A stretch of 19,664 nt of DNA, from the IMG/VR virus record IMGVR_UViG_2667527633_000005; one strand, 5' to 3'. The first letter of the stretch is position 1. Each line of letters starts with the position of its first letter. The stretch is from a virus (Duplodnaviria; Heunggongvirae; Uroviricota; Caudoviricetes). The translations under genes were made by a program, and so were the position numbers. Shown piece by piece: positions 1-14,684 of this stretch. Below the pieces are notes generated by a model. The model ran no database searches, was not told the DNA's origin, and saw only the letters and a program-made list of their open reading frames with translations.

Positions 1-177
1 CTACCNNNNNNNNNNTACTTTTGCGCCTCCCAGCCGGACCGGCGCTGCGGCGTAATACGCGGCAATTTCACCAATCCAGCCGGTCAGCCTTTCCCGCTGC
101 TCCTGACTGTTCGCGCCCAGAATAAAATCCATCGCTGACTGCGTATCCAGCTCACTCTCAATGGTGGCGGCATACAT
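1..177 (-). CDS. hypothetical protein, 5' portion only (runs off window start; N-run 6..15 inside)
   Basis: Minus-strand frame opening with ATG at 177..175 (MYAATIESELDTQSAMDFILGANSQEQRERLTGWIGEIAAYYAAAPVRLGG...). Absent from the ORF track because there is no stop in the window. No family recognised. Confidence 0.3.
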   Translation of the reverse strand: MYAATIESELDTQSAMDFILGANSQEQRERLTGWIGEIAAYYAAAPVRLGGAKVXXXX

Positions 178-257
178 CGCCTTTATGAAAAGACAGGAAA
201 AAATAAAATTTAAAAACAGTACATTACGAATGCTCAGACCTATCGTTTAAAGGAGTC

Positions 258-279
258 GCAATACACACTGCAATACACG
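258..279. repeat. left copy of 21-bp direct repeat gcaatacacaCtgcaatacac (two tandem GCAATACAC half-sites); candidate att/arm-type site at left island end
   Basis: Matches 10950..10970 (gcaatacacaTtgcaatacac) at 20 of 21 positions; a further GCAATACACA copy lies at 10920..10929 beside the integrase start. Confidence 0.45.
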
Positions 280-312
280 ATTATTTATAAGATGAGCGGC
301 ATCCGTCATAAA

Positions 313-551
313 GCTGGTGGATGCTTTTTCTATGCATATATGCACAGTTTTAGTGGGCGTTAATGTCGATATAGGGATCCCCATATCGAGATTGGATACC
401 TGGCTTTTTTCCGGTTAACCTTTAATCAGGCTGGTGGGCTTTACCTGTTTTGTATGAGTGGTCATCATGACCATGTCATAACAAAAACCCCATATTCGTG
501 GTTTTTCTGTGTCGGGCTATTCTGTCGTTGCTGTGCTGATTTGGCTGGTGG
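313..551 (+). other. cluster of three Chi octamers 5'-GCTGGTGG-3' in one orientation (313..320, 430..437, 544..551)
   Basis: Exact octamers read directly from the sequence within 240 bp of non-coding DNA; palindromes GTCGATATAGGGATCCCCATATCGA (367..392) and GGTCATCATGACC (461..473) lie between them. Confidence 0.75.
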
Positions 552-617
552 GCTGAATCATCATTACGGCGATGCAGCTATGTAGACGTTCCGGCCTCCT
601 CAAATTGAGGATTGTGG

Positions 618-778
618 AAGAATCAATGGGTTAGTCTTACTTTCCCGACATCCCCCAATGGGGGTTTTCGAAACAATCAATAGCTTAGGCTTACTTCCCC
701 GATTTCCTGCATTGCAGGTTTTCGAAATAATCAATGGGTTAGGCCATCGTGCAATTTTGCACTTTGCCAGCCAGCGCA
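618..778 (+). repeat. tandem ~55-bp repeat array (about 2.5 units), each unit with ATCAATGGGTTAG..CTTACTTCCCGA plus a short GC-rich hairpin followed by TTTTCGAAA
   Basis: Units begin near 622, 678 and 731. Hairpins: CCCCCaatGGGGG (about 652..668), CCTGCattGCAGG (706..718), GTGCAAttTTGCAC (759..772). A second repeat family GCCAGCGCAAT..CGCGTTATC occurs near 768..795 and 955..984. Confidence 0.6.
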
Positions 779-992
779 ATGTCGCGTTATCAGTCCTCAG
801 ATGTGAGGGATGTAGCCAGCTTTTCCCCCAGTGGGGGATATCCAGCACCGACGGCTTAACTGTGCGTGCCAGCACAAGGTAGCCTTGAACTACTTACTGC
901 ATCCCATCTTACAGGCCGTGCCTTCCTGCTTAACTTTTTGCAATGCAACAAGTCAGCCAGCGCAATTTTGCGTTATCGGGAATATCAGCAAG

Positions 993-1274
993 TTACCGCC
1001 GCAATCGTTCCGGCTTCTTCCACTGGTAAGTATTTTTCGCGCTCTCCCTCCGTTGTTGAGAACGGCGACGATATGCCAGCAACTCAAGGACTCTTGTTCG
1101 TATGTTGCGCATATCCACGCCGTTAAGCTCAATACCGTCACGGCGCATCACCTCAGCCACTACACGCACATAATTATCTGCGGTCACGCTGTCCGGCTGC
1201 GTGGCCTGTTCGTCATGCTGCTTGCTGATTCCACAAGCACGGCGGATTAATCGCAGTATTTCGGATTCAGTCAT
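993..1274 (-). CDS. hypothetical small protein (93 aa) with arginine-rich C-terminus
   Basis: ORF with ATG at 1274, directly downstream of the terS-like gene on the same strand; C-terminus RRRSQQRRESAK..KKPERLRR suggests nucleic-acid binding. Weak RBS, no family recognised. Confidence 0.4.
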   Translation of the reverse strand: MTESEILRLIRRACGISKQHDEQATQPDSVTADNYVRVVAEVMRRDGIELNGVDMRNIRTRVLELLAYRRRSQQRRESAKNTYQWKKPERLRR

Positions 1275-1356
1275 AGCGTACTACGTTACTTATCTTTATT
1301 CGGCTGCAACTTATCCGGTACGTTTCCGGCAGTTTCCATCAGATAATCGGACAGCA

Positions 1357-1827
1357 TCAGCGGTATGTTTTCGTCAAGTTTTGCGCATGCGTTACAGGCT
1401 CTGATAACTTCTTTTTCAGTCCATCCAGCATAGACGGCTTCATGTCGGGAAACTTCCTTGTCATGGCAAGCGGCAGGCTGTCCATGATTGAAGAAATCTG
1501 ACTCGCCAATTTTGAAAGCACGTATATACAAAACGCTGTATCAATAACGTCGCCGCGTTCGCGCTCGTTTTTAAGCTCCTGCGCCTCTGCCTGTGCTGTC
1601 AGCAATCTGATCCTGACTCGTAGGAGTTCATCATCATCAATCTCGCCTTTGTCGTCTGTAATCTGGTTAATTGCATTGCTAACCCGATTGTCTATTACGC
1701 TGGCAACATCATAAAACGCCTCGCGGCCTTTACGTTCAACGGGAGTCACTCCCCACTTGTCGAACGCTGTCGCACTTACACGGCAGCTTTGCGCCATGTT
1801 TTTTTTGTTCATCAGGTGCGATTTCAT
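1357..1827 (-). CDS. terminase small subunit, phage lambda Nu1-like
   Basis: LLTAQAEAQELKNERERGDVIDTAFCIYVLSKLASQISSIMDSLPLAMTRKFPDM aligns with lambda Nu1 (..RLTRAQADAQELKNARDSAEVVETAFCTFVLSRIAGEIASILDGLPLSVQRRFPEL) as I recall it. Start placed at ATG 1827 (GGGGA RBS 5 nt upstream); the track ORF begins at GTG 1839. Lies about 135 bp downstream of cosN, as in lambda. Confidence 0.85.
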   Translation of the reverse strand: MKSHLMNKKNMAQSCRVSATAFDKWGVTPVERKGREAFYDVASVIDNRVSNAINQITDDKGEIDDDELLRVRIRLLTAQAEAQELKNERERGDVIDTAFCIYVLSKLASQISSIMDSLPLAMTRKFPDMKPSMLDGLKKKLSEPVTHAQNLTKTYR

Positions 1828-1939
1828 CAATATCCCCACTTAAGTAATGTTTCAGGTTGGTGTATTGGCTTTATCTTTTCCTTTTTATTCATAGAGATAG
1901 AGCGAACAACAAAACCACCACCAGCACCCGAAAAAGGCT

Positions 1940-1990
1940 CATAAATAGCGAAAACCCGCGAGGTCGCCGCCCCGTAGCCTACCGGATCGC
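1940..1990 (-). other. lambda-type cohesive-end site (cosN core = reverse complement of 1961..1972, GGGCGGCGACCT, plus conserved flank)
   Basis: Minus strand reads ..ACG GGGCGGCGACCT CGCGGGTTTTCGCTATTTATGAg.., matching the lambda left-end/cosN sequence from memory; positioned immediately upstream of the Nu1-like gene. Confidence 0.8.
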
Positions 1991-2028
1991 CGGAAAGGAC
2001 CCGCCAGCCAGAACGGGCCCTAATTTCA

Positions 2029-2412
2029 TCAACCAATCAACTTATAGCGACCATCCCGTGCATTGCGACGTACACGCTCAATCTTGAGGCATAGCGCCGC
2101 ATCTGGCTTTTTTGGGACAGGTACGCGGCAATATTCAGAAGATCGAGGAATATTGTTTATCCAGTCGATCACTTCACTTAAATACCAGGCCTTACGCCCT
2201 TCCGTAACCTGCACACGCTCCGGGAACTCTCCACTAGCCTCAAGGTTTAGCAATGTGCGACGGCTAAGGGTAGTAAGTTCCATCACCTGATTCATATCAA
2301 CAAGGCGTTCACTTAAACGCATTTTGTCAGCAATAGCCTTTAATTCCTCTACTGCTGGATCCGGATACATCATTTCGGCAATTGGCTTAAGGTCATTGTA
2401 ATGATTCTGCAT
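2029..2412 (-). CDS. AlpA/excisionase-like HTH regulator (127 aa)
   Basis: Central segment MELTTLSRRTLLNLEASGEFPERVQVTEGRKAWYLSEVIDWI resembles the AlpA/Xis-type winged HTH; GGGGGA RBS 4 nt before ATG 2412; sits between the decoration gene and cos. Confidence 0.55.
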   Translation of the reverse strand: MQNHYNDLKPIAEMMYPDPAVEELKAIADKMRLSERLVDMNQVMELTTLSRRTLLNLEASGEFPERVQVTEGRKAWYLSEVIDWINNIPRSSEYCRVPVPKKPDAALCLKIERVRRNARDGRYKLIG

Positions 2413-2423
2413 TGTATCCCCCT

Positions 2424-2765
2424 TTACACACGAGCCAGCGGCTGAACAGAAATACCTGAGCCAACAAACGCGGCAACCTTTGCCGACAGTTCTTTTACAG
2501 ACTCAGGCCAGTTCAGAGCATCAACATTTAAAACACCTGTCTTATAAACCTGTGCCTGTGTTTTTTTCGCTGTGTCGATTTGTACAGCGGAAACATAAAC
2601 CGCTTTACCTACGCTCGAACCATCCCATACCACCAGTGCACCTGTTGCATCTTCCTGCATCAGTGGCGTAAATGCAGGAATTACCCCTTTATTAGCTGAA
2701 AATATCCCCAGCGTAGTCACCAGTGCTTCAGTGCCAGCCATGAGTTCAGTGTAATGAGTAGCCAT
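2424..2765 (-). CDS. head decoration protein, phage lambda gpD-like
   Basis: TPLMQEDATGALVVWDG..VYKTGVLNVDALNWPE..AAFVGSGISVQ parallels lambda gpD (TPLMLDTSSRKLVAWDG..FYKSGTFRYEDVLWPEA..TAFAGTAISIV, from memory); GGGGGAG RBS overlaps the stop of the upstream capsid gene. Confidence 0.8.
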   Translation of the reverse strand: MATHYTELMAGTEALVTTLGIFSANKGVIPAFTPLMQEDATGALVVWDGSSVGKAVYVSAVQIDTAKKTQAQVYKTGVLNVDALNWPESVKELSAKVAAFVGSGISVQPLARV

Positions 2766-2774
2766 TGCTCCCCC

Positions 2775-3815
2775 TTAGCCAATGCGAACGGTAACAAAAC
2801 GATTGATGCGGGCCGGTATTGGCTGTGGTGCTGAATGTGTCTGCACATATTCAATAGCCGGATCACCAGGCACAATATAGTTTTTCGGTGCAAGTTCGGC
2901 TTTAGTCAGCCCCATTCGGATTAGCTCCGGATCCTGAATACCGCCATAGGCGACAATCCCCTGAAGAGCCGTATTGCCAAGCACCATCAAATCAGGATCA
3001 AGGAAATGTTTTTCTGTTCCGTCCTCGTCGGTATAACGCCCGCTGTAAACAACAATCGCAACATCGCCCATATACCCTTTAAAACTCACCGAATCACCAA
3101 GGTCTTTAAGGGCCGTTTCCAGTTCGGAATTAGAACCACGACGGGTATCCAAAGCCTCTTTTATCGCTCTGAATGAACGGTATTTCTTCCATACATTACC
3201 ACCCATAATGATGATATTAGTGACGCCCTCACTAAATTCTGCGTAGCTCTCAATATCATCATTTGGATCAAAAGTTTCTTTATCCTTACCTGACCACTCA
3301 GTACCGCCAGACTGAGTGATGATATTTTGTGGTTTTATATTCCAGTCCAGCTCATAACGTTCAATACCATCGCCCTCAATGATATTTTTCCCCGTTGTGA
3401 TTGCCTGAACAGCAAGCCATTCAATACGTGCACGAATAGCTTTAGCCTGATTTACAATCGCCTGTTTAACTTTAATATTACGTGCCCCAAAAGCATTGTA
3501 TTGCTCAGGTGATACACCAGCAGGGCGCACAGCTAACTTATTTGGATCAATGCTGCTTTTCGGCTTCATATAGCCTGGACGAATTGTTTTTGATTCGTAC
3601 CCTTCGTCACGTGAAACTTTACTACCCACCATAGGAGAACAAAACGCTGCAATTGGGATATTTGGATCGTCGATTGTATCAAGAATAATATCGCGCGATT
3701 CAAACATTACCGAGCGAGTAAAAAACAAACTGGTAAACAACGCATTTAGTTGTTTTTGTACATCTACAGCATTAACCACCTGTACAAGCTGAGTAGGCGA
3801 ATATAAATCAACCAT
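2775..3815 (-). CDS. major capsid protein, phage lambda gpE-like
   Basis: Long collinear match to lambda gpE, e.g. NIITQSGGTEWSGKDKETFDPNDDIESYA..YRSFRAIKEALDTRRGSNSELETALKDLG..YMGDVAIVVYSG..MVLGNT. Start set at ATG 3815 (AAGAGG 6 nt upstream; aligns with the gpE N-terminus); the track ORF extends to 4028, but a stable hairpin at 3990..4020 argues against that extension. Confidence 0.85.
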   Translation of the reverse strand: MVDLYSPTQLVQVVNAVDVQKQLNALFTSLFFTRSVMFESRDIILDTIDDPNIPIAAFCSPMVGSKVSRDEGYESKTIRPGYMKPKSSIDPNKLAVRPAGVSPEQYNAFGARNIKVKQAIVNQAKAIRARIEWLAVQAITTGKNIIEGDGIERYELDWNIKPQNIITQSGGTEWSGKDKETFDPNDDIESYAEFSEGVTNIIIMGGNVWKKYRSFRAIKEALDTRRGSNSELETALKDLGDSVSFKGYMGDVAIVVYSGRYTDEDGTEKHFLDPDLMVLGNTALQGIVAYGGIQDPELIRMGLTKAELAPKNYIVPGDPAIEYVQTHSAPQPIPARINRFVTVRIG

Positions 3816-3989
3816 ACGCATCCTCTTTGCATTCATTAAAAATAATTGTGGATATATGCTACCACCGATATTTGTCATGCGAACACATGCAACCGAGTGC
3901 AATGTTGTATAAAGTTTTGGGGTGACAACTTCAGTGCGGACAATTAGTGTTAATATCTTCACTCCCTTTGGTCGGGATTTATGTAGCAT

Positions 3990-4020
3990 GCCGGAAAATT
4001 TATTTTTTCCGGCCTTTTTT
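3990..4020 (+). terminator. intrinsic-terminator-like hairpin (GCCGGAAAA-tttatt-TTTTCCGGC followed by a T-run), plus-strand orientation
   Basis: Perfect 9-bp stem 3990..3998/4005..4013 with T6 at 4015..4020, in the gap between the SSB-like stop (4032) and the capsid gene; on the minus strand it is a hairpin without a U-tract. Confidence 0.4.
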
Positions 4021-4031
4021 ATTGGCAATAT

Positions 4032-4481
4032 TTAAAACGGGATATCATCTCCCCATTGCTCATTATCTCCCACTGGTGGCTGGCTTCCTTGCTGATCTGC
4101 CTGTTGTTTTGCTCTGTTCAGTTCGTCAGTAGCCTGCCCCTGTTGGCCTTTTTTGCCGCCCGGTCGCGCCGTTCGCGCACTGATTACGCTGTCTGCGATA
4201 ACCTGCCAGCCCCGCCGCGTTTCGCCGTTCTGGCCTGTCCACTGGCTTACCTGCATGTTACCCGCCACGCTCACCAGTTCGCCTTTGTGGTGTTTTGCCA
4301 GTGCGTCGGCCTGTCTGCCAAACGCCAGGACGGATAACCACATCGTCGCCGTTCCGTCATCTGCCTGGCTGCACGGCAGGGGAACCGCCATACTCGCCAT
4401 CGCCATTTGTGTCCCTTTGCTGGTGGTCTTTAACTGCGGGTCAGCCACCAGCCGCCCGTAAGCCGCTATCTGTGCTGTCAT
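4032..4481 (-). CDS. single-stranded DNA-binding protein-like (C-terminal acidic DDIPF tail)
   Basis: Ends ..NEQWGDDIPF, the hallmark SSB C-terminal tail, preceded by a Gly/Gln-rich linker and an N-terminal domain compatible with an OB fold; overlaps the upstream ORF by 4 bp. Confidence 0.65.
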   Translation of the reverse strand: MTAQIAAYGRLVADPQLKTTSKGTQMAMASMAVPLPCSQADDGTATMWLSVLAFGRQADALAKHHKGELVSVAGNMQVSQWTGQNGETRRGWQVIADSVISARTARPGGKKGQQGQATDELNRAKQQADQQGSQPPVGDNEQWGDDIPF

Positions 4482-4792
4482 GCTGTCTGCTCTCCGGTTT
4501 TAACATTGATGGTTGTCACCTGTTCCGCTTCGGCAATCTCCCGTTCTGTCAGCGTGGCAAAGTTTGCCGCTGCTGTGGTCATGAATGCGCTTATCAGGTC
4601 GGGATGTTCCTTCGCGTATCCTGCCCGTGTGTGGTGGTCTATCGCTTTGATTGCCACCTTTAAGGAAAGCTCTGTCATGTCTAACGCTTTATATTTTGCC
4701 TGTGTTCTGTCTCTGCGAATTTTGGTCATTTGTCGCCCCTGATTCATGTTTTCGGCTGGCATGTTTATTAAGTGATTTTTATGTATGCGCAT
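4478..4792 (-). CDS. hypothetical protein (104 aa; start uncertain, several in-frame ATGs)
   Basis: ORF immediately downstream of the iteron origin and translationally coupled to the SSB-like gene; no family recognised. Confidence 0.45.
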   Translation of the reverse strand: MRIHKNHLINMPAENMNQGRQMTKIRRDRTQAKYKALDMTELSLKVAIKAIDHHTRAGYAKEHPDLISAFMTTAAANFATLTEREIAEAEQVTTINVKTGEQTA

Positions 4793-4843
4793 TTATTTTC
4801 ACCCCCCCCTCGTTTAAAAAGTTTTTAGTTGTGCCTCCCCCCC

Positions 4844-5061
4844 TCTACCCATCTACCCGAATGCTCATCATGTCAGTAATGGCGCGGCTTTCAGCGGGTA
4901 GATAGCTTTTTGACTCCTCTACCTGCCGTCTACCCTGCTACCTGAAACTGATAAAATCAGGTAGAAGAGGTAGAGAGCTTTTATTAGCCTTCTACCTAGC
5001 CCTATACCCACTTATCATGTTGAATAATATGCGTTTATTTTGTTCAGGTAGATGGGGTAGA
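4844..5061. repeat. iteron array (TCTACC forward, GGTAGA inverted; at least 10 copies) with adjacent AT-rich DNA: putative replication origin of the island
   Basis: TCTACC at 4844, 4852, 4918, 4929, 4991; GGTAGA at 4897, 4960, 4969, 5047, 5056 (pairs spaced 8-11 bp); AT-rich stretches at 5018..5045 and 5066..5090; immediately 3' of the primase/helicase gene. Confidence 0.6.
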
Positions 5062-5077
5062 TGGCTTTTACAAAAAA

Positions 5078-6832
5078 TTATAAAAACGCGTCGCAATCGT
5101 CTGTTGTAATTGCGTTGGTCTGCGTTACTCCCTTAACTTTTCGCGTAATATATTCATGCCCGTAAACTTTCGCCGCTGGCTTCATGGCCTTGCTGAACTC
5201 AGCCACGTTTAGCGGTTTGCTCCTGCCCGCGTATGCCATAAACGCCAGATAGACGCGGTAAAGGCTGTTCCTGGTCGTGTACTTCACTGAATCACCACCG
5301 CCACCCATCATCAGGCCGCGCGCTTCCTCCAGAAAATTCAGGAACTGGCAAAACTCAATAACCGGATCCGTCTGTTGCTTTATTGCCAGTGCTTCATCAC
5401 CGTCACGCTGTTCCAGTAGTAAAGCCCGTGCCTTCTCAGGGTCGGTAAAGTTCGCCAGCAATCGGCGGATAATAACGGGGATTTCAGCCGCAATCTTTTC
5501 CGGTAGCTCCCTGTCTTTTTCGGCCTCACTGACGATATTGTCGAAACGGAAAATCACGCGACGACGTGCCACACCTCCGGCCCGTTCGGTGAATATCATC
5601 GGGTTGTTGTTGGTCGCCAGCACCACCGCCCTGATTACCGCCGTGAAACGCTTTTCATATTTCGGGTTAATTTCCACGGGGTCGCCGCCTGTGATTTTCT
5701 TGATGCCCGTTCCTTCGCCTGTATATTTCGGCTGGTCAGCCAGGACGATAAGACGACTCCCGACAACCTGCGCACGTCCACCAGCATCATCAAGCGATGT
5801 CATTTCAGCGCTTACCGTGTTCTGTTTCCCTGCCAGAAGGCTGGCTATGTGTGTGAATGTACTTTTACCGCTCCCGCCGTCTCCGGTGGCCTCAATAAAC
5901 ATCTGCCAGTCGTACCGGTTCGCCATAATCATGTACAGCGCGGCACATATACGCATCATCTTGCGCGGGTCTTTTCCGGCTGCGTGCTCAAGCCATTTAT
6001 GAAAGTTTGGCGCGTTATCGCGGATGTTCTCCCCTGGTGCTGGTGGCGTGTACTCAATGCCGTTGTGCGTGGTGATCCAGTTCTCCGGCGTGTGCGGGGA
6101 AAATTCCCCCGTTTTCAGGTCAAGCGCACCATTGGCGAACGGCAGCAAATCGCCAGACGGCTCGCCCATTGGTTCGGCAATAACTTTTAACGCTTCCACG
6201 GCGTTATTGATTACGCGCTTGCTGAAAGTGGCCCTGTGCTCTGAATAGATCGCCACCATTTCGCGGCTAAGTTCCATTGTGCTGACCGGACACCATACCC
6301 CGCCGCGCCATACGTGAACGATTTCACTTTCAGGATGTACGCAAACGCCATCAAAGCGATCGGCAAGCAACTGCGCGCGCTCACTGTCCGCCATCTGCGA
6401 AAGTTGCGCCTTTTGCTTTACCGGAAGCTCAATGACCAGACCATCAGAAAGATTCTGGCGTTCACGGGCCAGATATTCGCGCCAGTTCTGCACCTCCTGG
6501 CCGTGCATACCCTCAGGATAAAAATTTGCATCCTGTACGCCTGCTGCCGCCAGCTTCTGACCAATCGCCTTTATCATTACAGGCGCAAGATATCCGGCCC
6601 TGTATATGCGTGCTGATTTTCGGCCTTCCGGCACAATTTGCAGATTATCCAGTTCGGATAGCTGCTGCTCCCCAAGCCACACAGGAGGCTCATTATCTCC
6701 GGCCATACGCGCATCATGTTCCTGCCATTGTTTCGCGTGTGCCCAGGCATCACTACCCGCAAAAATAATGACTTCTGTTCCTTTGTGTTTTATGCCGCGT
6801 GACTGCTGTTTTACGTTCGGTGCCAGTTTCAT
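5078..6832 (-). CDS. P4-family primase/helicase (Pri-Rep-like replication initiator)
   Basis: 584-aa ORF with Walker A IEATGDGGSGKSTFTHIASLLAGK and a C-terminal region typical of phage/plasmid P4-type primase (D5_N/SF3 helicase-like); the position (small ORFs, pri, then iteron ori) matches satellite replication modules. Confidence 0.9.
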   Translation of the reverse strand: MKLAPNVKQQSRGIKHKGTEVIIFAGSDAWAHAKQWQEHDARMAGDNEPPVWLGEQQLSELDNLQIVPEGRKSARIYRAGYLAPVMIKAIGQKLAAAGVQDANFYPEGMHGQEVQNWREYLARERQNLSDGLVIELPVKQKAQLSQMADSERAQLLADRFDGVCVHPESEIVHVWRGGVWCPVSTMELSREMVAIYSEHRATFSKRVINNAVEALKVIAEPMGEPSGDLLPFANGALDLKTGEFSPHTPENWITTHNGIEYTPPAPGENIRDNAPNFHKWLEHAAGKDPRKMMRICAALYMIMANRYDWQMFIEATGDGGSGKSTFTHIASLLAGKQNTVSAEMTSLDDAGGRAQVVGSRLIVLADQPKYTGEGTGIKKITGGDPVEINPKYEKRFTAVIRAVVLATNNNPMIFTERAGGVARRRVIFRFDNIVSEAEKDRELPEKIAAEIPVIIRRLLANFTDPEKARALLLEQRDGDEALAIKQQTDPVIEFCQFLNFLEEARGLMMGGGGDSVKYTTRNSLYRVYLAFMAYAGRSKPLNVAEFSKAMKPAAKVYGHEYITRKVKGVTQTNAITTDDCDAFL

Positions 6833-7128
6833 TTTTTACCTCTGAATCCGTTAATCATGGTTTTCATTTTCTGGATATTTCCCCACGCTTTTTCCCTGCT
6901 GATGGGCTTACTGCGGGGTGCGGCATATACCAGGGGAAAATCACGCCGGAACTGATAAACAGGCATCACGCAGTCATAGCTATACCCCTCACGGCGGTAA
7001 GTGATGCGCCGTTCTGCCACGCCTTTAATCGTTACCGTGCCGCCGTATTTATCGCGGTAAATATCGCCGTTCATAAATTCAGGTCGAGCGGGGCCGCTGG
7101 CAATAAAGCCAGAATTTTTCATTTCCAT
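6829..7128 (-). CDS. hypothetical protein (99 aa)
   Basis: ORF overlapping the primase start by 4 bp (coupled); no family recognised. Confidence 0.5.
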   Translation of the reverse strand: MEMKNSGFIASGPARPEFMNGDIYRDKYGGTVTIKGVAERRITYRREGYSYDCVMPVYQFRRDFPLVYAAPRSKPISREKAWGNIQKMKTMINGFRGKK

Positions 7129-7145
7129 ATTATTTATTCCTCGAC

Positions 7146-7367
7146 TTAACTCGACTTATTTGATAGCAGGGCACTATTTATTGCGTCATTGAGTTTTTCT
7201 GCTGATTCATCAATAAGTGACAACAGGCCATAAGCAATATTTGCATCTTCATTGTCATTTATGCAATCAAGCCACATATTTAATATTGCTTTTGCTGAAT
7301 TATTTAAAGTTAATGAACTTTCTGCACATGCTAACAATTTAAAAAAGACTTCCCGTTCTGTATTCAT
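7146..7367 (-). CDS. hypothetical protein (73 aa), encoded in a visibly AT-rich segment
   Basis: ORF in the same operon string; local base composition is much more AT-rich than the flanking genes. Confidence 0.4.
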   Translation of the reverse strand: MNTEREVFFKLLACAESSLTLNNSAKAILNMWLDCINDNEDANIAYGLLSLIDESAEKLNDAINSALLSNKSS

Positions 7368-7559
7368 TTAATCCCCCACCAGCTTACTTTCTTCCTCAAT
7401 CAAAAAACTAGCGACACTTCCCGAAAGACGCGCCAGTAGGCTCGCCAGTGCGGATATATCAGCATCTGTAATTTTGTTCGGGTATACCTCAAGAAGGCGG
7501 CAAATAATTTCTGTCTGGTGCGCACGTTCAGCGGCTTCGTGTAATGTAATTTCCTGCAT
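7368..7559 (-). CDS. hypothetical protein (63 aa)
   Basis: ORF abutting its neighbours with no gap (7367/7368; shares nt 7559 with the upstream ORF). Confidence 0.4.
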   Translation of the reverse strand: MQEITLHEAAERAHQTEIICRLLEVYPNKITDADISALASLLARLSGSVASFLIEEESKLVGD

Positions 7560-7744
7560 TAATGCACCTCTTTTAATTCATACACTGCTGAAATAATGAC
7601 TTGTGATAAGCCATATTCTGATGATTCGCTTCTCACCGCAGCAATAGCCGTCTGAACATTAACAGCCTTCACATTCTGAGCGATACCAATTGTGTGGCCT
7701 ATTGGGTTAACAGCTCGGGCAAATACACGGAAGGTTTTAAGCAT
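7559..7744 (-). CDS. hypothetical protein (61 aa), first gene of the leftward operon
   Basis: ATG at 7744 preceded by GGGAG (6-nt spacer); lies immediately downstream of the divergent control region. Confidence 0.45.
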   Translation of the reverse strand: MLKTFRVFARAVNPIGHTIGIAQNVKAVNVQTAIAAVRSESSEYGLSQVIISAVYELKEVH

Positions 7745-8025
7745 GACTCACTCCCTGGCGGATTTTTGCAGCGAATACAGCAACACAACCGGACGGGCAA
7801 CGGCTACGCGCTTCGCGTTCCGTCCAGGCGGTTACGTGGATGATTTGAGATTCTCCGGCACTCAGTGCCAGAAAACGCCACACAAAGGCCGTTTGTGTGT
7901 GTACAAGGTGTGGTATATGATTTACAGCAACCATAACGGCTCCTAGTTTACGTTGTTGGTTAGACGCCCCGTATGTGTTCCCAGCACTGCGGGGCGTTGC
8001 TCTTTGTATTTCAACAATCCTTTCG

Positions 8026-8103
8026 GTGTGTTTCATGTTATGAGCGCATGAAACACACGTCAAGGCTTTTTGTATTTCTTTTTTTGTGTATACTGAAACA
8101 CAC
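8026..8103. promoter_or_regulatory. operator-like sites in the divergent control region: GTGTGTTTCATG-N9-CATGAAACACAC (8026..8058) plus a third TGAAACACAC (8094..8103) overlapping a TATACT -10-like hexamer (8089..8094)
   Basis: Perfect 12-bp inverted repeat read directly; located 20-100 bp upstream of the RHH gene start (8125, AGGAG RBS) and within the 380-bp gap separating the two divergent transcription units. Confidence 0.5.
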
Positions 8104-8124
8104 CGATGATTAGGAGTTTCAGAA

Positions 8125-8430
8125 ATGGCAACGGCTAACAAAAACGCAAAATCACAACTGACAACTGTCAGAGTCCCACTAGATGTTATGCAAGGGATGG
8201 AATCCGTTAAGCTGGACGGTGAAAGCAATGCCGGATTTATCGTAACCGCCATGCGCGGAGAAATAGCCCGCCGCCAAGCAGAAGGCAGCGGAGAAAATCC
8301 CCTTGTGTCGTCACTGGATGCCCTGGCTAAGGTCGAACAAATCGGCATCAAAGCAGCCGAGGAGATCGGGCAACTCGTCACCGTCGCGCGTGAAGAACTC
8401 CAGCGACGCAAGGTCAAAGAGCATGAATAG
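8125..8430 (+). CDS. ribbon-helix-helix (CopG/Arc-like) DNA-binding protein; candidate island repressor
   Basis: N-terminal LTTVRVPLDVMQGMESVKLDGESNAGFIVTAMRGEI has the strand-helix-helix pattern of RHH regulators; strong AGGAG RBS; transcribed opposite to the main island operon. Confidence 0.55.
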   Translation: MATANKNAKSQLTTVRVPLDVMQGMESVKLDGESNAGFIVTAMRGEIARRQAEGSGENPLVSSLDALAKVEQIGIKAAEEIGQLVTVAREELQRRKVKEHE

Positions 8431-8487
8431 CCAATATCAGCGCCATAGTTTGAGGAACGCAGGCGCATTGCTTTACAGGACAGCACC

Positions 8488-8667
8488 ATGAGCGACACAG
8501 AATCAACCAAAACACCATCACCAACTCGTAAGAGACGACGCAAAAATATAGCGCATGAACATGAATCAGAAAGATTCGCACCTTGTTCGTTTGCTCTTGA
8601 GAAATTCCTTAAAGAGCACAGGAAAAAGCTCTCGTTGCAAACCTTGGAACGAACCAAATCTGACTGA
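8488..8667 (+). CDS. hypothetical small basic protein (59 aa)
   Basis: ATG 8488 to TGA 8665..8667 (MSDTESTKTPSPTRKRRRKNIAHEHESERF...), below the ORF-track length cut-off; follows the RHH gene and precedes a strong terminator. Confidence 0.4.
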   Translation: MSDTESTKTPSPTRKRRRKNIAHEHESERFAPCSFALEKFLKEHRKKLSLQTLERTKSD

Positions 8668-8733
8668 TCACATTGCCCACCAGCCGCAAATGTGGCATTG
8701 TTGGTGATGCTTTTGTTTTCCCTTGTTCCCACT

Positions 8734-8765
8734 GGCGACCCTTTTGCGGTCGCCTTTGTTTTGTC
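8734..8765 (+). terminator. rho-independent terminator (GGCGACC-cttttgc-GGTCGCC followed by TTTGTTTTGTC)
   Basis: 7-bp GC-rich stem with T-rich tail, read directly; placed between the convergent plus-strand pair and the Bro-N gene. Confidence 0.6.
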
Positions 8766-9342
8766 ACTGAATGCGGTTACCAAAGTAAAACTCAGGCTGA
8801 TATTCACGTATCAGCGTTTTTTCTTCTTCCTCCAGCTCACGCTTTTTGCGCTTACATGCCTGTAGCTCCCTCCCCTTCTCGCTGGCACTTATTTGATATT
8901 GCTCTTTACGGCGGGAAAAATCCTGTAATGCACCCCACGGGATACCATAAGTCCCCGTTTTTCTGATACCTGGTATCACATTTCTGAATACCCAGTTACT
9001 GAAACGATGAGCAAATGTGCCAGGCGTCGTTGCTTTGCGGCTGCGGGCTATTAGTTTGTAGAAACCTGACTCAGAGATAATTCTCATATTCTGATTTCCT
9101 CCTGGGGTGTAAGTTAAATTTACTCCCTTTTCATCATCATCAAGCATCTGCAACGCCGTACGCGAATTGGTTAGTTCCAGCGCAGCACAAACATCTTTTG
9201 CAACAAACCACGGATCGCCGTTCAGATACACCACACGAACGTTCACACTATCAAAGCGCAGAACGACGAGATCACGAATATCGCAGAATTTTTTCACTGG
9301 ACGAGCGTACCCCTTGCCCGTCACGGCAATATTTTTATTCAT
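8764..9342 (-). CDS. Bro-N domain protein (phage antirepressor-like) with coiled-coil C-terminus
   Basis: N-terminal region (..NGDPWFVAKDVCAALELTNSRTALQMLDDDEK..) is typical of Bro-N/AntA DNA-binding domains; C-terminus is charged and heptad-like (RELQACKRKKRELEEEEKTLIREY). Confidence 0.75.
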   Translation of the reverse strand: MNKNIAVTGKGYARPVKKFCDIRDLVVLRFDSVNVRVVYLNGDPWFVAKDVCAALELTNSRTALQMLDDDEKGVNLTYTPGGNQNMRIISESGFYKLIARSRKATTPGTFAHRFSNWVFRNVIPGIRKTGTYGIPWGALQDFSRRKEQYQISASEKGRELQACKRKKRELEEEEKTLIREYQPEFYFGNRIQ

Positions 9343-9362
9343 CGCGTTTTTACCTTATAGAC

Positions 9363-9385
9363 AAAAAACCCCTCGTGATGAGGGG
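9363..9385 (-). terminator. rho-independent terminator on minus strand (CCCCTC-gtgat-GAGGGG; U-tract from the A6 run 9363..9368)
   Basis: Hairpin 9369..9385 directly downstream of the alpA stop (9399), followed on the minus strand by six U. Confidence 0.5.
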
Positions 9386-9398
9386 CATTATTTACTGG

Positions 9399-9656
9399 TT
9401 ATTGCTGTTTTGTTTTTCCAGGTTTCCATCCAGGATGCCACTCACCACGGATCCATGCCTGAACCTCTGAAAGTCGATACCCTGCAGCACGTTCACCGAT
9501 CTTGATACGTCGCGGGAATTTACCTGCCTGCTCCATTTTCCAGCGTGTTGAGTTTGCCAGCGTGGTAAGTGCTATGCACTCTTTTTCACGAATGAACCGA
9601 TCAATGTCCTTCATTGTGCGCAAATCGTTTTCATCAACAAGAGAATAAATTGCCAT
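9399..9656 (-). CDS. alpA: AlpA-family transcriptional regulator / excisionase-like protein
   Basis: 85 aa; ..CIALTTLANSTRWKMEQAGKFPRRIKIGERAAGYRLSEVQAWI is typical of AlpA (prophage CP4-57 regulator family); start is 2 bp after the integrase stop. Confidence 0.85.
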   Translation of the reverse strand: MAIYSLVDENDLRTMKDIDRFIREKECIALTTLANSTRWKMEQAGKFPRRIKIGERAAGYRLSEVQAWIRGEWHPGWKPGKTKQQ

Positions 9657-9657
9657 A

Positions 9658-10899
9658 TCACACCACCTCTTTATTAAGCTCGATAACGTTGTTGTTAAAT
9701 CCTGCTATCGTATTAAGGTAATTAACCCACATATTAAGCACCTCAAGTTTTTTCTTTATATGCCTGCTTTTATTGTAAACACCAGCAACCCCTTTCACTT
9801 TATGACCTAAAAGAAGTTCGACAATATAAGGATCCGCCCCCATATCATTAAGCGTAGTGGAAAATGTGCGCCTGAAATCATGTATGCACCACAAGCCATT
9901 AGTATCATGACCAAGACGCCTGCATATTCTGTTTGCAGCCCCTGTTATTGTCGCCCTTTGCAAAGCACAACCGACAACATAACCGCGATTTTTTGTTTCT
10001 GCGTAAAGATTAACGATCCATTGTTTTATTCCGTCAGGAACAGGCCTTACTATAGCCTCCTTGTTTTTGCTGTGCTCTTTTGGGACTGTCCATACCCAGT
10101 TTTTTAAATCCCATTCGTCCCAGGTGGATAGCCTCGCCTCCTGCTGTCGGCAACCAAACACCAGGCAGATAACCATTATTCTTCGGTTATATATTGATGA
10201 CAGAGTTAGCAAATTATTACCGTAAGCATAAGACCATACATCAGCGGTTTCATTGATATTAAGAACGCGATCCCTTATACCGGATGAGCGCCCGACATAA
10301 CTTACGTTAATATCTCCAAAGGGATCGCACGCGATGTATTGCCTGACGCGACAAAAACGCAACGCCTGTTTGATATCAAGAAAAATTGCACCAGACATAA
10401 CAGGCGCATTTTTTTTGATCCTGTCAAAGACGGTAAGCCATGTGTGTAATTTGCACTGTTCTATAGCCATATCACCGATATAGGGGAAGATATGCTTTTC
10501 AAATCGTTTTATTAAATATTCATGCTCTTTTCTGGCTGTTGTGGCGTGATTGTCGTACCAGTAAAACAGCGCATCCCTTACGGTCACTGGTTGCATAGTT
10601 TTTTCGGCAGCAAGTTTTATTTGCCTGCGGGGGTCCAGATTTTCAGCCAGCCATTCACGGCACTGATCACGCATGCGCCTGGCCGTTGCAAGAGACATGT
10701 CAGGATAGCGACCAAGTGTAAGCCATACCGGAGGGGATTCCCTGCCACCAAGACGATAGTAAAAAACAAAGCTGATCCCCCCAACCATGCTTACACGCAC
10801 AGACAACCCGCGCCCATCCGCTATTGTTTTTTGTTTGTCCTGCCGTTTTCCGACAAGACTCTTTAACAGTTTGTCACTGAGTTTGTTTTCAATAGCCAT
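9658..10899 (-). CDS. int: tyrosine site-specific integrase, P4-type
   Basis: 413 aa; N-terminal arm-binding-like region (LSDKLLKSLVGKRQDKQKTIADGRGLSVRV..FYYRLGG); C-terminal catalytic motifs HDFRRT..LLGH..GVY; GAGGG RBS 7 nt before ATG 10899. Confidence 0.95.
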   Translation of the reverse strand: MAIENKLSDKLLKSLVGKRQDKQKTIADGRGLSVRVSMVGGISFVFYYRLGGRESPPVWLTLGRYPDMSLATARRMRDQCREWLAENLDPRRQIKLAAEKTMQPVTVRDALFYWYDNHATTARKEHEYLIKRFEKHIFPYIGDMAIEQCKLHTWLTVFDRIKKNAPVMSGAIFLDIKQALRFCRVRQYIACDPFGDINVSYVGRSSGIRDRVLNINETADVWSYAYGNNLLTLSSIYNRRIMVICLVFGCRQQEARLSTWDEWDLKNWVWTVPKEHSKNKEAIVRPVPDGIKQWIVNLYAETKNRGYVVGCALQRATITGAANRICRRLGHDTNGLWCIHDFRRTFSTTLNDMGADPYIVELLLGHKVKGVAGVYNKSRHIKKKLEVLNMWVNYLNTIAGFNNNVIELNKEVV

Positions 10900-10919
10900 T
10901 AAAAGCCCTCAAGAGATTT

Positions 10920-10970
10920 GCAATACACACCCATCCCGATCGCCAATTTGCAATACACATTGCAATACAC
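10920..10970. repeat. right copies of the GCAATACACA repeat (10920..10929; 21-mer gcaatacacaTtgcaatacac at 10950..10970); candidate attR/arm-type or AlpA/Int operator sites
   Basis: Direct repeat of 258..278 (20/21 identical); located in the integrase promoter region. Confidence 0.45.
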
Positions 10971-11174
10971 AAAACCGCGAAAAACTGGAAGGGTGATGAA
11001 CGGTCATCAAAAGCATGGAAAACGACATTCCAGACGCAGCAAGGGTTTCAGTGGAGTTGGCGAACGATGCGGGCAACTACGGTGAGATGATAGACATAAA
11101 TCGCCTTCACAATGGCGCTCTGCAGCTGCGTGTTCTGCAGCGTGTCGAGCATCTTCATCTGCTNNNNNNNNNNT

Positions 11175-11468
11175 GCCGGTTTTAAGGGGTTAATTTCTTC
11201 AAAAGTCAAATCTCGCCCGCAATGCTGTGACGATGACGCGATGATCATTTGTGGATGTATGGCTCGCCTGAAAAAAAACAACAGCGATTTGCATGATTTA
11301 TTGGTGGACTATTATGTCGGCGGCATGACTTTTATGGCGCTTGCACGTAAGCATGGGCGATCTGATTGTTGGGTTGGCAGGATGCTCCAGAAAGCTGAGG
11401 GCGTAGTGGAGGGCATGCTGATGGTGTTGGATCTCCGATTGGAGATGGATGCTGATTGTTCGAAATAA
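11175..11468 (+). CDS. phage antitermination protein Q-like, C-terminal portion (N-terminus lies across the N-run 11164..11173)
   Basis: ..[68 protein letters not shown]..: Cys cluster plus a sigma-region-4-like HTH, resembling small lambdoid Q proteins (DLP12 QuuD type, from memory). Context supports this: a terminator about 100 bp downstream and a lysis cassette further on. The track ORF's MALCSC.. N-terminus across the Ns is probably not real. Confidence 0.4.
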
Positions 11469-11566
11469 TTAAAAGAAAAGTTGCTGTCTGATTGTCATTA
11501 GTCTAACATTTTAAATGTTGGAATCGCAACGTAGTTATTATCATATAACAGCTTGTTTCCTGATTT

Positions 11567-11598
11567 AGCCAGCCTCCCCAAAGGCTGGTTTTTTTTCT
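11567..11598 (+). terminator. rho-independent terminator (CCAGCC-tccccaaa-GGCTGG + T8), tR'-like position downstream of the Q-like gene
   Basis: Hairpin 11569..11588 and T-run 11589..11598 read directly; a possible -35/-10 (TTGTCA ..TTAAAT) lies near 11495..11525. Confidence 0.55.
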
Positions 11599-11624
11599 AA
11601 TAAGTATCATTTCGGGTAGGGATT

Positions 11625-12149
11625 TTATTGTTTAACCCATAATAATTCATTGACATTGAATCCCAGCTTTTGAGCGGTTCGCACATAGTCTGCTTTTACT
11701 TTATCTGGAATAGTTGGGGTCCTTGCCAGAATCCATAGGTATTCTCTGTTCGGACCACTGACAAGAGCATACTTATACTCATCATCCAGTTTGATTACAT
11801 TATAGCCACCATAGAAGGGGCCAAAAAACGAAACCTTCAACGCTGCAGTTTTAGTATCTCCAGTAAAGTATGCTTTACCTTCGCTCTCGCTCCATTTATT
11901 TTTCGTTGGATCGTATCCACGGTTAAGTACACGAATCCCTCCGTCGTTCCGTTTTCCATAAGTAGCGCTGACCTGTTCCAGACCACGTTCGAACCGGTTC
12001 TCGAGGCGAGCTATTTCATACCATTTTCCGAGATAGCGGTTGGCGTCAAAATTTGTAATCGGCTGCACACCTTTAGGTGGTGTCGGGGCCTTACATGCTA
12101 TAAGAGTGAAAGAGAGTGCAATGCCAGTCAACACAGGCCATAACTTCAT
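11625..12149 (-). CDS. blc: outer-membrane lipoprotein lipocalin Blc
   Basis: Lipoprotein signal ..LTGIALSFTLIACKAP then NFDANRYLGKWYEIARLENRFERGLEQVSATY..GKAYFTGDTKTAALKVSFFGPFYGGYNVIKLD..YLWILARTPT, clearly Blc-like but only moderately similar to E. coli K-12 Blc; start set at ATG 12149 (AGGA RBS) rather than the track's 12209. Confidence 0.85.
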   Translation of the reverse strand: MKLWPVLTGIALSFTLIACKAPTPPKGVQPITNFDANRYLGKWYEIARLENRFERGLEQVSATYGKRNDGGIRVLNRGYDPTKNKWSESEGKAYFTGDTKTAALKVSFFGPFYGGYNVIKLDDEYKYALVSGPNREYLWILARTPTIPDKVKADYVRTAQKLGFNVNELLWVKQ

Positions 12150-12341
12150 AATAAATCCTGTACTTTTGATAGTTGAGGGTAAGTATGAAAGATAGATGAT
12201 TACGACCAATCACTTAAAGAACTTTTATACTATATTAGGAATAGTCCATAACAGAAAAATTGTCAGTGATGACGCCAGAAAGGCAATTTATTCCGTGCAC
12301 TACACAGTTTATCTGTTAATGAATTAGTCAAGGGGGAGGAT

Positions 12342-13301
12342 ATGATAAAAAAACCTGTGATTGGAATCAGCGGTTGTTTGGCCGGTTCTGCTGTTCGTTT
12401 TGATGGTGGTCACAAAAGAGCTGACTTTTTAATGGACAAATTAGTGGAATGGGTAACATTCAGACCAGTATGTCCGGAAATGGCTATAGGGCTGCCAGTT
12501 CCGCGTCCTGCTCTACGTCTTGTGCGCTCGACGCAAGGAAATATACGGATGTGTTTCAGCCACGACCAGAATGAGGATGTGACAGAGAGAATGACAGAGT
12601 TTAGTCGTTCTTATATGGACAAATTAAAGGATGTATCGGGGTTTGTGGTTTGTGCTAAATCTCCCAGCTGTGGCATGGAGCGCGTGCGTGTCTATGATGA
12701 AAATGGTAATCGAGGTCGTAAAGATGGAGTGGGACTATTTACGAGCACTTTGATGGAAAAGTTTTCTTGGCTACCGGTTGAAGAGGATGGGCGATTACAT
12801 GATCCAGTGCTTCGTGAGAATTTTGTTGAAAGAGTTTTTGCTTTGCATGAGCTCAATCACCTTTACAAGGAGAAATTATCAAGAAGAGAGTTATTAGCTT
12901 TTCATAGTCGTTATAAGCTTCAGTTGTTGGCGCATAGTCAGGCAGGCTATAAAGATATGGGACCATTTGTGGCTGCAATACACGAGTGGGCGGACCTTGA
13001 ATCATTCTTTGAGGTGTATCGTGATAAGCTGATGGCGATTCTCATAAAACCTGCATCACGTAAAAATCACACGAATGTGCTGATGCATATACAGGGGTAT
13101 TTTAGTAACTACTTAAGTACACGCCAGCGTAAAGAGTTGAGCGAGGTTATACTTAACTATCGTTCTGGCACATTGCCTCTTCTTGCGCCGTTGACTCTGC
13201 TGAAGCATTATCTGGGTGAGTATCCTAATGATTACTTGCTTACACAGAATTACTTCGATCCCTATCCGGAAGAACTGGCTTTAAGACTGATGGTGAATTA
13301 A
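12342..13301 (+). CDS. DUF523 (TudS-like) / DUF1722 fusion protein
   Basis: N-terminal domain with three spaced cysteines (GISGCLAG, PVCPE, SPSCG) as in DUF523 [4Fe-4S] proteins, C-terminal half YbgA/DUF1722-like; strong RBS AAGGGGGAGG; AT-rich gene. Confidence 0.6.
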   Translation: MIKKPVIGISGCLAGSAVRFDGGHKRADFLMDKLVEWVTFRPVCPEMAIGLPVPRPALRLVRSTQGNIRMCFSHDQNEDVTERMTEFSRSYMDKLKDVSGFVVCAKSPSCGMERVRVYDENGNRGRKDGVGLFTSTLMEKFSWLPVEEDGRLHDPVLRENFVERVFALHELNHLYKEKLSRRELLAFHSRYKLQLLAHSQAGYKDMGPFVAAIHEWADLESFFEVYRDKLMAILIKPASRKNHTNVLMHIQGYFSNYLSTRQRKELSEVILNYRSGTLPLLAPLTLLKHYLGEYPNDYLLTQNYFDPYPEELALRLMVN

Positions 13302-13780
13302 CTGTATGCGATATCATCTGAAAGTGATGAGTTCCTGCATGCAGGATATTTACAATCGTAAAAACTACACTATGATACCCATAGTGTCAGTTTGTATAAA
13401 AATCCTGTTCACGCTGAAGAAAATATTGAGATGCAATTTAATGTTGGTAAATATACCAGCCCCAAAATATTTTATTCAATCTGTTTTTATATAAAGATAT
13501 TTCAAGCGAATATTAAGAGCATATAATATTATTATTGCACGCAGCTATTATAATATAACAGATTAGTTTAATGATTTTTTGCGAGTTAAACACATGCTTT
13601 TATAGTTGTGATGCAATGAGATTTTCCTTATTGTTGAACTGGCGAATATTGATTACCCACCTATACTTACCTGGTGTAACCCCAATGATATCAGGTGGAT
13701 AATATGCCATACATATGTTCTATGGTGATGCCTCTAATTAGTTGAGTCTGATGTATAATACGGGCTTTTGAGGTTATCTC

Positions 13781-14606: not shown

Positions 14607-14684
14607 AAAAACACATGATGTAACGTGATGCGTTTTAATGATTTTGTAATTTTCGTATTTGATAATTTTATGATGCTTTCAGCT

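Follow-up and report, generated by a model that had tools for sequence, protein, structure and literature searches.

Organization of the locus

The window analysed here, a 19,664-nucleotide stretch of viral DNA, is a series of contigs with ten-N spacers between them (at 6-15, 11164-11173, 16762-16771 and 19622-19631); one of the contigs carries a satellite element flanked on both sides by pieces of a prophage portal gene. Since the whole island lies on that single contig (16-11163), its two ends are truly linked. The principal features are the following.

16..183, minus strand: C-terminal (3') part of the split prophage portal gene, with the contig cut at 16 (identity to lambda gene B)
184..11094, minus strand: body of the satellite (HE-PICI), from Pfam and PGAP annotation and flank comparison
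9399..9656, minus strand: AlpA-family regulator or excisionase, a rival candidate for binding the repeats (Pfam Phage_AlpA, 5.4e-14)
9658..10899, minus strand: tyrosine integrase of 413 amino acids with an N-terminal arm-binding domain (Pfam Arm-DNA-bind_3, 3e-17; Phage_integrase, 1.7e-14)
11095..11163, minus strand: N-terminal (5') part of the same split gene, with the contig cut at 11163 (match to lambda gene B)

The genes of the satellite follow one another on the minus strand in the order int, alpA, Bro-N, icd-like, primase, SSB, gpE-like capsid, gpD-like decoration, AlpA-like HTH and Nu1-like terS; the corresponding Pfam assignments (Int, AlpA, Bro-N, D5_N primase, SSB, Phage_cap_E, HDPD and Nu1-like terS, in that order) are in agreement with the PGAP names. 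Residues 7-94 of the integrase correspond to a separate N-terminal arm domain (PF13356, Arm-DNA-bind_3, E = 3e-17). A search of the island contig against Rfam at E <= 0.1 returned no match, and ARAGORN found no tRNA or tmRNA in the window, which bears out an earlier statement, in the initial annotation of this DNA, that neither end of the island carries a tRNA.

Boundaries and target of the element

Comparison with the uninterrupted portal gene of phage lambda (gene B) demonstrated that window positions 16-183 are 100% identical to that gene, that positions 11095-11163 match it at 68 of 69 bases, and that the left- and right-flank matches share 13 nt in lambda coordinates. The junctions are thereby placed at 183/184 and 11094/11095, and an imperfect 13-nt duplication is found at both (171-183 and 11095-11107).

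171..183, no strand assigned: att core copy at the left junction, CATACATCGCCTT, with the identity block ATCGCCTT at 176-183
11095..11107, no strand assigned: att core copy at the right junction, CATAAATCGCCTT, with the identity block ATCGCCTT at 11100-11107

The left identity block is the published AAGGCGAT (aaggcgat) of the site group B:Phage_portal_2:241, and the two blocks are separated, start to start, by 10,924 bp; attL and attR of the element Eco10269.11.B_Phage_portal_2_241, together with its identity block aaggcgat, are letter-identical to those of the window. A crossover placed within AAGGCGAT in silico would restore the lambda B sequence exactly. By this comparison, a 10.9-kb island splits the portal gene of a lambdoid prophage (the cognate of lambda B) at about codons 275-277 of 533, and its true junctions lie outside the repeats described below, 75 bases beyond the left one and 124 bases beyond the right one. 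The portal gene had been missed as the actual target in the initial annotation.

In complete genomes of E. coli (L001 and L002), the portal gene is found as two pseudogene halves around the same island, annotated by PGAP as 'phage portal protein, missing N-terminus' and 'phage portal protein, missing C-terminus' and situated between the W/terminase and the protease/capsid genes. Judged from these alignments, the element is a helper-embedded PICI (HE-PICI) of site group B:Phage_portal_2:241, and thus belongs to a described class of satellite that keeps a helper late gene off until excision. It lies inside one of its helper prophage's late genes and is co-oriented with that gene, int and the portal gene both being on the minus strand; its integrase can be assigned to the HE-PICI clade with a defined site-group att, as indicated by the att identity and by relatives at 69-88% identity, all of which are located in a split portal gene at the same portal site; its genes follow the four-zone layout of int-alpA, a Bro zone, a primase replication zone and a late zone; and doubled TGTATTGC copies end at -77.5 bp and start at +132.5 bp relative to the attP centre, where about -81 and +132 bp are expected of the class. 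In the study describing this class, excision was shown experimentally only for the capsid-E element 11capE (PMC10111431). For the present element the circular-form junction is predicted to be CATAAAGGCGATTTATG, and the excised circle would contain ...TTTTCATAAAGGCGATTTATGTCTATC... at that point.

The terminal repeats and their conservation

Five copies of GCAATACACA, all on the plus strand, are found near the ends of the island, at 258, 270 (with one mismatch, GCAATACACG), 10920, 10950 and 10962, such that gcaatacacaCtgcaatacac occupies 258-278, gcaatacacaTtgcaatacac occupies 10950-10970, and an extra GCAATACACA lies at 10920-10929. These letters and positions, the extra copy included, are exactly those first reported, and the copies far exceed chance expectation: eight matches with at most one mismatch occur in the window against 1.75 expected (five of the eight being the island-end copies), and none of 200 dinucleotide shuffles reached that number. 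A repeat finder recovered the 21-nt pair at 95% identity (family D13). The pattern spanned by the repeats is GCAATACACAyTGCAATACAC.

257..279, minus strand: int-distal doubled motif (candidate arm sites), reading cgTGTATTGCagtgTGTATTGCg; two half-sites 12 bp apart
10920..10929, minus strand: fifth, single copy, TGTGTATTGC on this strand
10949..10971, minus strand: int-proximal doubled motif (candidate arm sites), reading tgTGTATTGCaatgTGTATTGCa
10994..11009, no strand assigned: palindrome TGATGA-ACGG-TCATCA, conserved and situated between core and proximal pair

In the orientation of int, the distal pair ends 77.5 bp upstream of the attP centre and the proximal pair starts 132.5 bp downstream of it; the distal pair recurs at the same distance in the relatives L004 and L007, in which the spacing to the attP centre is that of the window. 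The upstream distance compares with a published value of 81+/-2 bp, a gap of ~3 bp that may reflect the definition of the centre and of the motif ends. From the second half-site of the proximal pair to the start of the fifth copy is 30 bp, and about 20 nt separate the end of that copy from the int ATG. The fifth copy is found in the window, L004, L005 and L007, is degenerate in L056 (GTGTATTGTA), and is absent from other HE-PICI groups, where int begins 13-22 nt past the pair; on the sequences compared, it is specific to the portal-241 subclade.

Relatives were gathered by protein search, contig look-ups and a motif scan. Each complete element (from E. coli, Edwardsiella and a metagenome) harbors exactly five co-oriented copies of GTGTATTGC, with none elsewhere in about 20 kb. 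In an alignment of four lineages with diverging flanks, all 27 motif columns are invariant, those of the proximal pair among them, as against 46 of the 191 other columns (Fisher p = 3e-15); the ATGAC..GTTCAT of the palindrome is likewise invariant. The motif thus stays constant while the surrounding arm DNA diverges, and its variants are GGTGTATCACT in the hpt PICI and GGGGGCAT in P4.

A search of genome contigs for related loci with the Int protein alone gave no match. Scanning those contigs for TGTATTGCNNTGTGTATTGC returned 51 stretches, 13 of them from Enterobacterales, of which eight have an Int homologue right after the motif and four resemble a distal arm. The rest come from unrelated phyla, are without Int and include some simple tandem repeats; they were taken as chance, since by estimate about 17 chance matches are expected (18 fixed bases, 596 Gb, two strands). 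The P0005 locus was recovered in the scan as L056 and L009. A DNA search confined to E. coli proved useless for footprinting because it offered no intermediate diversity, with 65 genomes at >=95% identity and the other 70 giving short matches only, at 70-78%.

Candidate binders of the repeats

The initial annotation had offered two readings of the repeats, as a duplication of the att core or as arm-type binding sites. The second is favored by the presence of the motif on both arms, by its invariance and by the Arm-DNA-bind_3 domain of the integrase, whereas the first is contradicted by the position of the lambda gene B junctions; the accompanying statement that the repeats bracket the mobile unit holds approximately, except that they lie inside it. 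They are therefore most likely arm-type sites of Int, as predicted from a repeated non-core motif that sits on both attP arms at fixed distances, is conserved amid diverging arm DNA, and changes with the integrase lineage. They are the 'doubled motif' in the attP arms of portal-gene HE-PICI, with each copy probably serving as a half-site for an Int arm domain.

In lambda and P4, Int assembles an intasome by binding both arm and core sites, and Int arm sites occur on both arms whereas sites for recombination directionality factors (such as lambda Xis) usually occur on one. By the same logic, recombination here would take place at the short core AAGGCGAT within a near-palindromic attP core (CATAAA-GGCGA-TTTATG). 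The circular form would carry two half-sites of TGTGTATTGC in tandem, with a period of 12 bp, some 78 bp upstream of the core and a second, co-oriented pair 132 bp downstream of it, followed in this subclade by the fifth copy just before int; integration separates the attP arms, and one pair would consequently come to lie inside each end of the island. An Int tetramer may then engage the half-sites through its N-terminal arm domains and the core through its C-terminal domains, forming the intasome.

When occupied, the three int-proximal copies might in addition damp int expression, or int may instead be read through from the helper late operon. Such autoregulation is speculative because no sigma-70-like promoter is found upstream of int: a consensus scan of 10800-11163 for promoters and terminators yielded none, including between the core and int, where the initial annotation had placed the extra copy in a presumed integrase promoter region. 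Inspection by eye of the stretch from the core to the proximal pair for an IHF consensus (WATCAANNNNTTR) gave a perfect match in L064 and L060, a match with two mismatches in the window, and none in L004 and L007.

Comparison of protein domains adds a weak argument for Int as the binder. Among HE-PICI groups with different targets and the same motif, Int residues 1-95 are 61-70% identical and the remainder 37-52%; the argument is weak because the N-domain of the hpt PICI, which has a different motif, is still 59% identical.

An alternative, which appears unlikely, is that the repeats bind not Int but the island's AlpA, acting as an excisionase (recombination directionality factor), as a transcription activator, or both. 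The alpA gene directly follows int, the int-alpA unit begins shortly after the proximal copies, and AlpA was named as an alternative binder and called tightly conserved in HE-PICIs (PMC10111431). However, the motif is not tracked by AlpA identity, which ranges across elements from 40 to 78%: Xenorhabdus and Arsenophonus elements with the exact motif show 40-49%, and L011 retains the motif at 40%, whereas the hpt PICI L062, at 48%, has another motif. The presence of repeats at fixed distances on both arms is also at odds with the one-arm placement normal for directionality factors, and four paired half-sites fit an Int tetramer.

It is still less probable, indeed rather improbable, that the repeats are operators for transcription only (of int-alpA, or for a helper or host factor) with no role in recombination. 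In its favor, three copies separate the core from the int start codon, the last of them stopping about 20 nt short of the ATG, and the equivalent region of P4 and of KplE1 controls int expression; but this view leaves unexplained the other pair, which sits some 10.7 kb from int at the opposite end of the island and keeps a fixed spacing to the core in all lineages, and the scan showed nothing promoter-like close to the proximal copies. Finally, the notion that these near-identical 21-nt direct repeats near both ends are the crossover site, marking the exact ends of the island, is almost certainly wrong: the comparison with the empty site, set beforehand by the initial annotation as able to refute it, finds lambda portal identity up to 183 and again from 11095, with a 13-nt duplication of its own, against repeats at 258-279 and 10920-10971 (75 and 124 bp inside); the published identity block of the site group is AAGGCGAT; and the same motif accompanies quite different target cores, namely TTACCAA in terminase (L066), ATTAAGGATTAT in another portal site (the L064 group) and a capsid E site (L060).

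Comparison with known systems

The repeats themselves are already known, having been published as the HE-PICI doubled motif: tgTGTATTGCantgTGTATTGCa, which occurs as two doubled copies in the same orientation, each at a set distance from the attP centre (81+/-2 bp upstream for one, 132+/-2 bp downstream for the other), with integrase arm domains, AlpA or an unspecified protein as the candidate binder (Tommasini, Mageeney & Williams 2023, NAR Genom Bioinform 5:lqad036; PMC10111431). The window shares with that description the motif, the co-oriented doublets, their spacing, the identity block AAGGCGAT, the attL and attR letters, the order of the genes and the element's orientation inside the portal gene; nothing essential differs apart from the fifth single copy before int, seen in the window's subclade and missing from the paper's text. 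While that motif was called unique to HE-PICIs, the same layout with another sequence is found in an hpt-site cf-PICI and in P4. For the repeats alone, little is therefore gained over the 2023 description; the additions are the subclade-specific fifth copy and the same architecture with other repeats in those two systems, along with corrected island boundaries and the identification of the helper prophage portal gene as the target.

In satellite P4 (NC_001609), the core is flanked on both sides by doubled 12-nt 'attP arm sequence repeats' that stand in tandem and, as in the window, share one orientation; these repeats were reportedly described by Pierson and Kahn in 1987. The int-side pair is about 122 bp away from the centre of the core and sits just ahead of the int ATG, and an extra single copy occurs at the start of int, as in the window, although the P4 copy is inverted. 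The P4 integrase belongs to the same Pfam arm-domain family but is only 22% identical to the window Int; its repeat (GGGGGCAT) is unrelated to TGTATTGC, and its target is a tRNA-Leu gene as opposed to a phage late gene. P4 Int represses its own promoter (PMC7286903).

Two co-oriented arm doublets of 12-bp period, the int-side one about 120-137 bp from the core and the other about 65-80 bp from it, might represent an attP scaffold ancestral to the whole P4/PICI clade of satellite integrases, with a repeat sequence that co-evolves with the Int N-domain (GGGGGCAT in P4, GGTGTATCACT in hpt cf-PICI and TGTGTATTGCA in HE-PICI), a suggestion to which slightly less than an even chance is given. If true, core specificity alone would be free to drift while the arm scaffold stayed fixed, a possible reason for the repeated retargeting to new phage late genes, and the portal-241 subclade would have gained its fifth copy as a further operator of int.

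In KplE1 (CPS-53), with its IntS/TorI system, the int-proximal att arm carries Int sites directly upstream of int, as in the window, and the IntS arm sites overlap PintS (PMC2951348); that system has a mapped sigma-70 promoter and directionality-factor sites, whereas the scan of 10800-11163 showed no sigma-70-like promoter. Its arm-site motif contains TAAA, and its target is a tRNA-Arg gene. The arm-type sites of lambda Int (P1, P2 and P'1-P'3) follow the same heterobivalent logic, in which arm sites on both sides of a core are bridged by one protein (summarised in PMC2951348). The window differs from lambda in its arm-domain family (PF13356), and in the sequence, number and spacing of its sites; and while lambda is itself the prophage, the island described here is the guest of a lambda-like one.

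Integration into a prophage portal gene

The three repeats described in the initial annotation read as reported (gcaatacacaCtgcaatacac at 258-278, gcaatacacaTtgcaatacac at 10950-10970 and an extra GCAATACACA at 10920-10929), and its statement that no tRNA is present holds, in that ARAGORN detects none in the window. At one mismatch or fewer the 10-mer matches the window eight times (1.75 expected), and eight or more matches occurred in 0 of 200 shuffles of the window. Five of the eight are the island-end copies; these, and the block of exact identity at the junctions, are:

258, + strand, 10-mer copy
270, + strand, 10-mer copy (final base G)
10920, + strand, 10-mer copy
10950, + strand, 10-mer copy
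10962, + strand, 10-mer copy
176-183 and 11100-11107, exact identity block ATCGCCTT (AAGGCGAT in gene orientation)

The repeats had been proposed to represent either the att core duplication or arm-type binding sites, and comparison with uninterrupted lambda gene B refuted the former by placing the junctions outside them. Gene B is 100% identical to positions 16-183 and matches 68 of 69 bases at 11095-11163; these left and right matches have 13 lambda positions in common (J02459 3658-3670), so that the duplicated core corresponds to CATACATCGCCTT (171-183) and CATAAATCGCCTT (11095-11107). The GCAATACACA repeats lie 75 bp inward of the left junction and 124-175 bp inward of the right, and were rejected as the att core on that basis. 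The identity block corresponds to codons 275-277 (K-A-M) of the 533-codon prophage portal gene, which is identified as the target of the island; the single mismatch (C/A) falls on the side predicted for a crossover within AAGGCGAT, an exchange that would regenerate the exact lambda sequence. The reconstructed attP core of the element (CATAAA-GGCGA-TTTATG), set beside that of a metagenomic relative (CATAAA-AGCCA-TTTATG), indicates that inverted hexamers are retained and that the centre tracks whichever synonymous codons the local portal gene uses.

Runs of ten Ns (6-15, 11164-11173, 16762-16771 and 19622-19631) link draft contigs end to end in the window. A single contig (16-11163) carries the island and both of its ends and is broken within the portal gene at either side, probably reflecting repetition of that gene among the lambdoid prophages of the genome; the DNA past 11173 does not physically adjoin the island. 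The gene content of the other contigs (11174-19621), consisting of lambdoid-prophage and accessory genes, is nothing unusual: a lipocalin (Blc-like), a 2-thiouracil desulfurase/DUF1722 protein, IS1 InsA, a P21-type holin, DUF1327, a phage lysozyme and a GYF_2 protein, together with an ORF beginning near 11260 that looks like a putative Q-type antiterminator.

The satellite and its helper

The gene set between the repeats is that of a PICI-type phage satellite:

9658-10899, - strand, tyrosine integrase with an Arm-DNA-bind_3 N-domain
9399-9656, - strand, AlpA
between the repeats, - strand, Bro-N protein and Icd-like gene
between the repeats, - strand, D5_N/P4-type primase and SSB
between the repeats, - strand, second AlpA-like HTH
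2775-4028, - strand, lambda-gpE-like capsid
2424-2765, - strand, gpD-like decoration protein
1357-1839, - strand, Nu1-like small terminase (its Pfam match, residues 69-148 against 79-158, covers the C-terminal part of the profile only)

Portal, protease and large terminase genes are lacking, so that the satellite relies on the same prophage that it deprives of an intact portal gene. The same island is found in approximately 53-65 of 5,426 complete E. coli genomes, in which PGAP represents the phage portal protein by one pseudogene half on either side of the island, within an otherwise ordinary lambdoid head cluster (Nu1, A, W, portal, protease, D, E).

Directly upstream of the island's Nu1-like terS, 77 nt (1928-2004) display 91% identity to the stretch that directly precedes nohD/Nu1 in the helper prophage (positions 20705-20781 of an E. 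coli locus, L002); judging from this match, these 77 nt probably duplicate the helper's cos region and would thereby enable packaging of the satellite. At 591-752, three tandem 54-nt units each contain a different 13-nt palindrome (CCTCAAATTGAGG, CCCCCAATGGGGG and CCTGCATTGCAGG), which indicates that the stems are maintained by compensatory change; the RNA fold z-score is -2.66, no match to these units was found in Rfam, and the hpt-site cf-PICI (L065) has a comparable hairpin-rich stretch at its far end.

Conservation of a published motif

A 2023 study described helper-embedded PICIs (HE-PICIs), 491 satellites whose integrases form a single clade and which occupy 14 sites in lambda-cognate late genes (Tommasini, Mageeney & Williams 2023; PMC10111431), and reported the motif tgTGTATTGCantgTGTATTGCa as a doublet on each side of the attP centre, the two being co-oriented and lying 81+/-2 bp upstream and 132+/-2 bp downstream. 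The repeats of the initial annotation are the opposite-strand reading of that motif. For site group B:Phage_portal_2:241 (portal-241) the published identity block is aaggcgat (PMC10111431); attL and attR of the entry Eco10269.11.B_Phage_portal_2_241 are letter-identical to the window, and the entry Eta10.10 is the Edwardsiella locus compared here. The repeats, target and conserved spacing are therefore already known, as an instance of that published feature in the same sequences.

Integrases 88% (Edwardsiella tarda), 77% (Serratia quinivorans) and 69% (metagenome) identical to that of the window all come after Nu1-A-W and a portal N-fragment of approximately 290 residues, and an Erwinia endophytica element (integrase 70% identical) has the same AAGGCGAT core at both sides. 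GTGTATTGC (in int orientation) occurs in exactly five copies per complete element, three ahead of int (spacing 12, 30) and two, spaced by 12, at the opposite end of the element, and nowhere else in approximately 20 kb. Across the int-proximal arms of four lineages, 27 of 27 motif columns are invariant versus 46 of 191 others (Fisher p = 3e-15), and the core-to-motif stretch is free of indels. Measured from the centre of the identity block, the start of the proximal doublet is 132.5 bp downstream in 3/3 complete elements, and the end of the distal doublet is 77.5-78.5 bp upstream. Only the portal-241 subclade has the fifth, single copy (10920-10929); in other HE-PICI groups, 13-22 nt separate the doublet from the int start codon.

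The stretch from the att core to the proximal doublet contains a palindrome, TGATGA-ACGG-TCATCA (10994-11009), which is kept (ATGAC..GTTCAT) in all four portal-241 lineages amid diverging surroundings and may serve as a binding site for an accessory factor such as AlpA or IHF.

The protein reading the motif

The four half-sites were suggested to bind the arm domains of an Int tetramer, or AlpA, or an unknown protein (PMC10111431). The motif is present on both attP arms, like Int arm-type sites, which supports the arm-site reading of the initial annotation. Among HE-PICIs with other targets and the same motif, Int residues 1-95 are 61-70% identical to the window Int and the remainder 37-52%, which indicates that conservation is concentrated in the arm domain and that the core-reading part has diverged. 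While each argument is weak singly, these sequence comparisons lead us to favour Int as the likely binder. That AlpA reads the motif appears improbable. Its identity (40-78%) does not track the motif, being 40% where the motif is exact, in a Xenorhabdus element, and 48% where the motif is a different one, in the hpt-site PICI; furthermore, directionality-factor sites usually occupy one arm only, as established for lambda Xis and extended here to the present case, whereas the motif occupies both.

P4 Int represses its own promoter (PMC7286903) and the KplE1 IntS arm sites overlap PintS (PMC2951348), which by analogy makes autoregulation of int through the three proximal copies plausible. Against this, the interval from the core to int yielded no sigma-70-like promoter. 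Alternatively, int may be transcribed from the helper's late operon, as proposed for HE-PICIs (PMC10111431).

Comparison with other satellites

The doubled motif was called unique to HE-PICIs (PMC10111431). Beyond that account, in addition to the fifth portal-241 copy, the doubled layout is also found in the hpt-site capsid-forming PICI and in P4. The former (E. coli hpt locus, L062/L065; Int 45% identical) displays the same doubled, 12-bp-period layout with a different repeat, GGTGTATCACT: cGGTGTATCACT is doubled at approximately +137 bp, and cCGTATATCACTcGGTGTATCACT lies at approximately -75 bp, relative to the core ATGAAACATAyTGTAGAAG. P4 (L068), whose Int is only 22% identical to that of the window, shares the doubled 12-bp-period layout, with annotated doubled 12-nt 'attP arm sequence repeats' of the GGGGGCAT type approximately 64 bp from the core on one side and approximately 122 bp on the int side, and an extra copy over the int ATG. 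It thus appears that the doubled arm-repeat architecture extends across the clade and that its repeat sequence changes together with the integrase.
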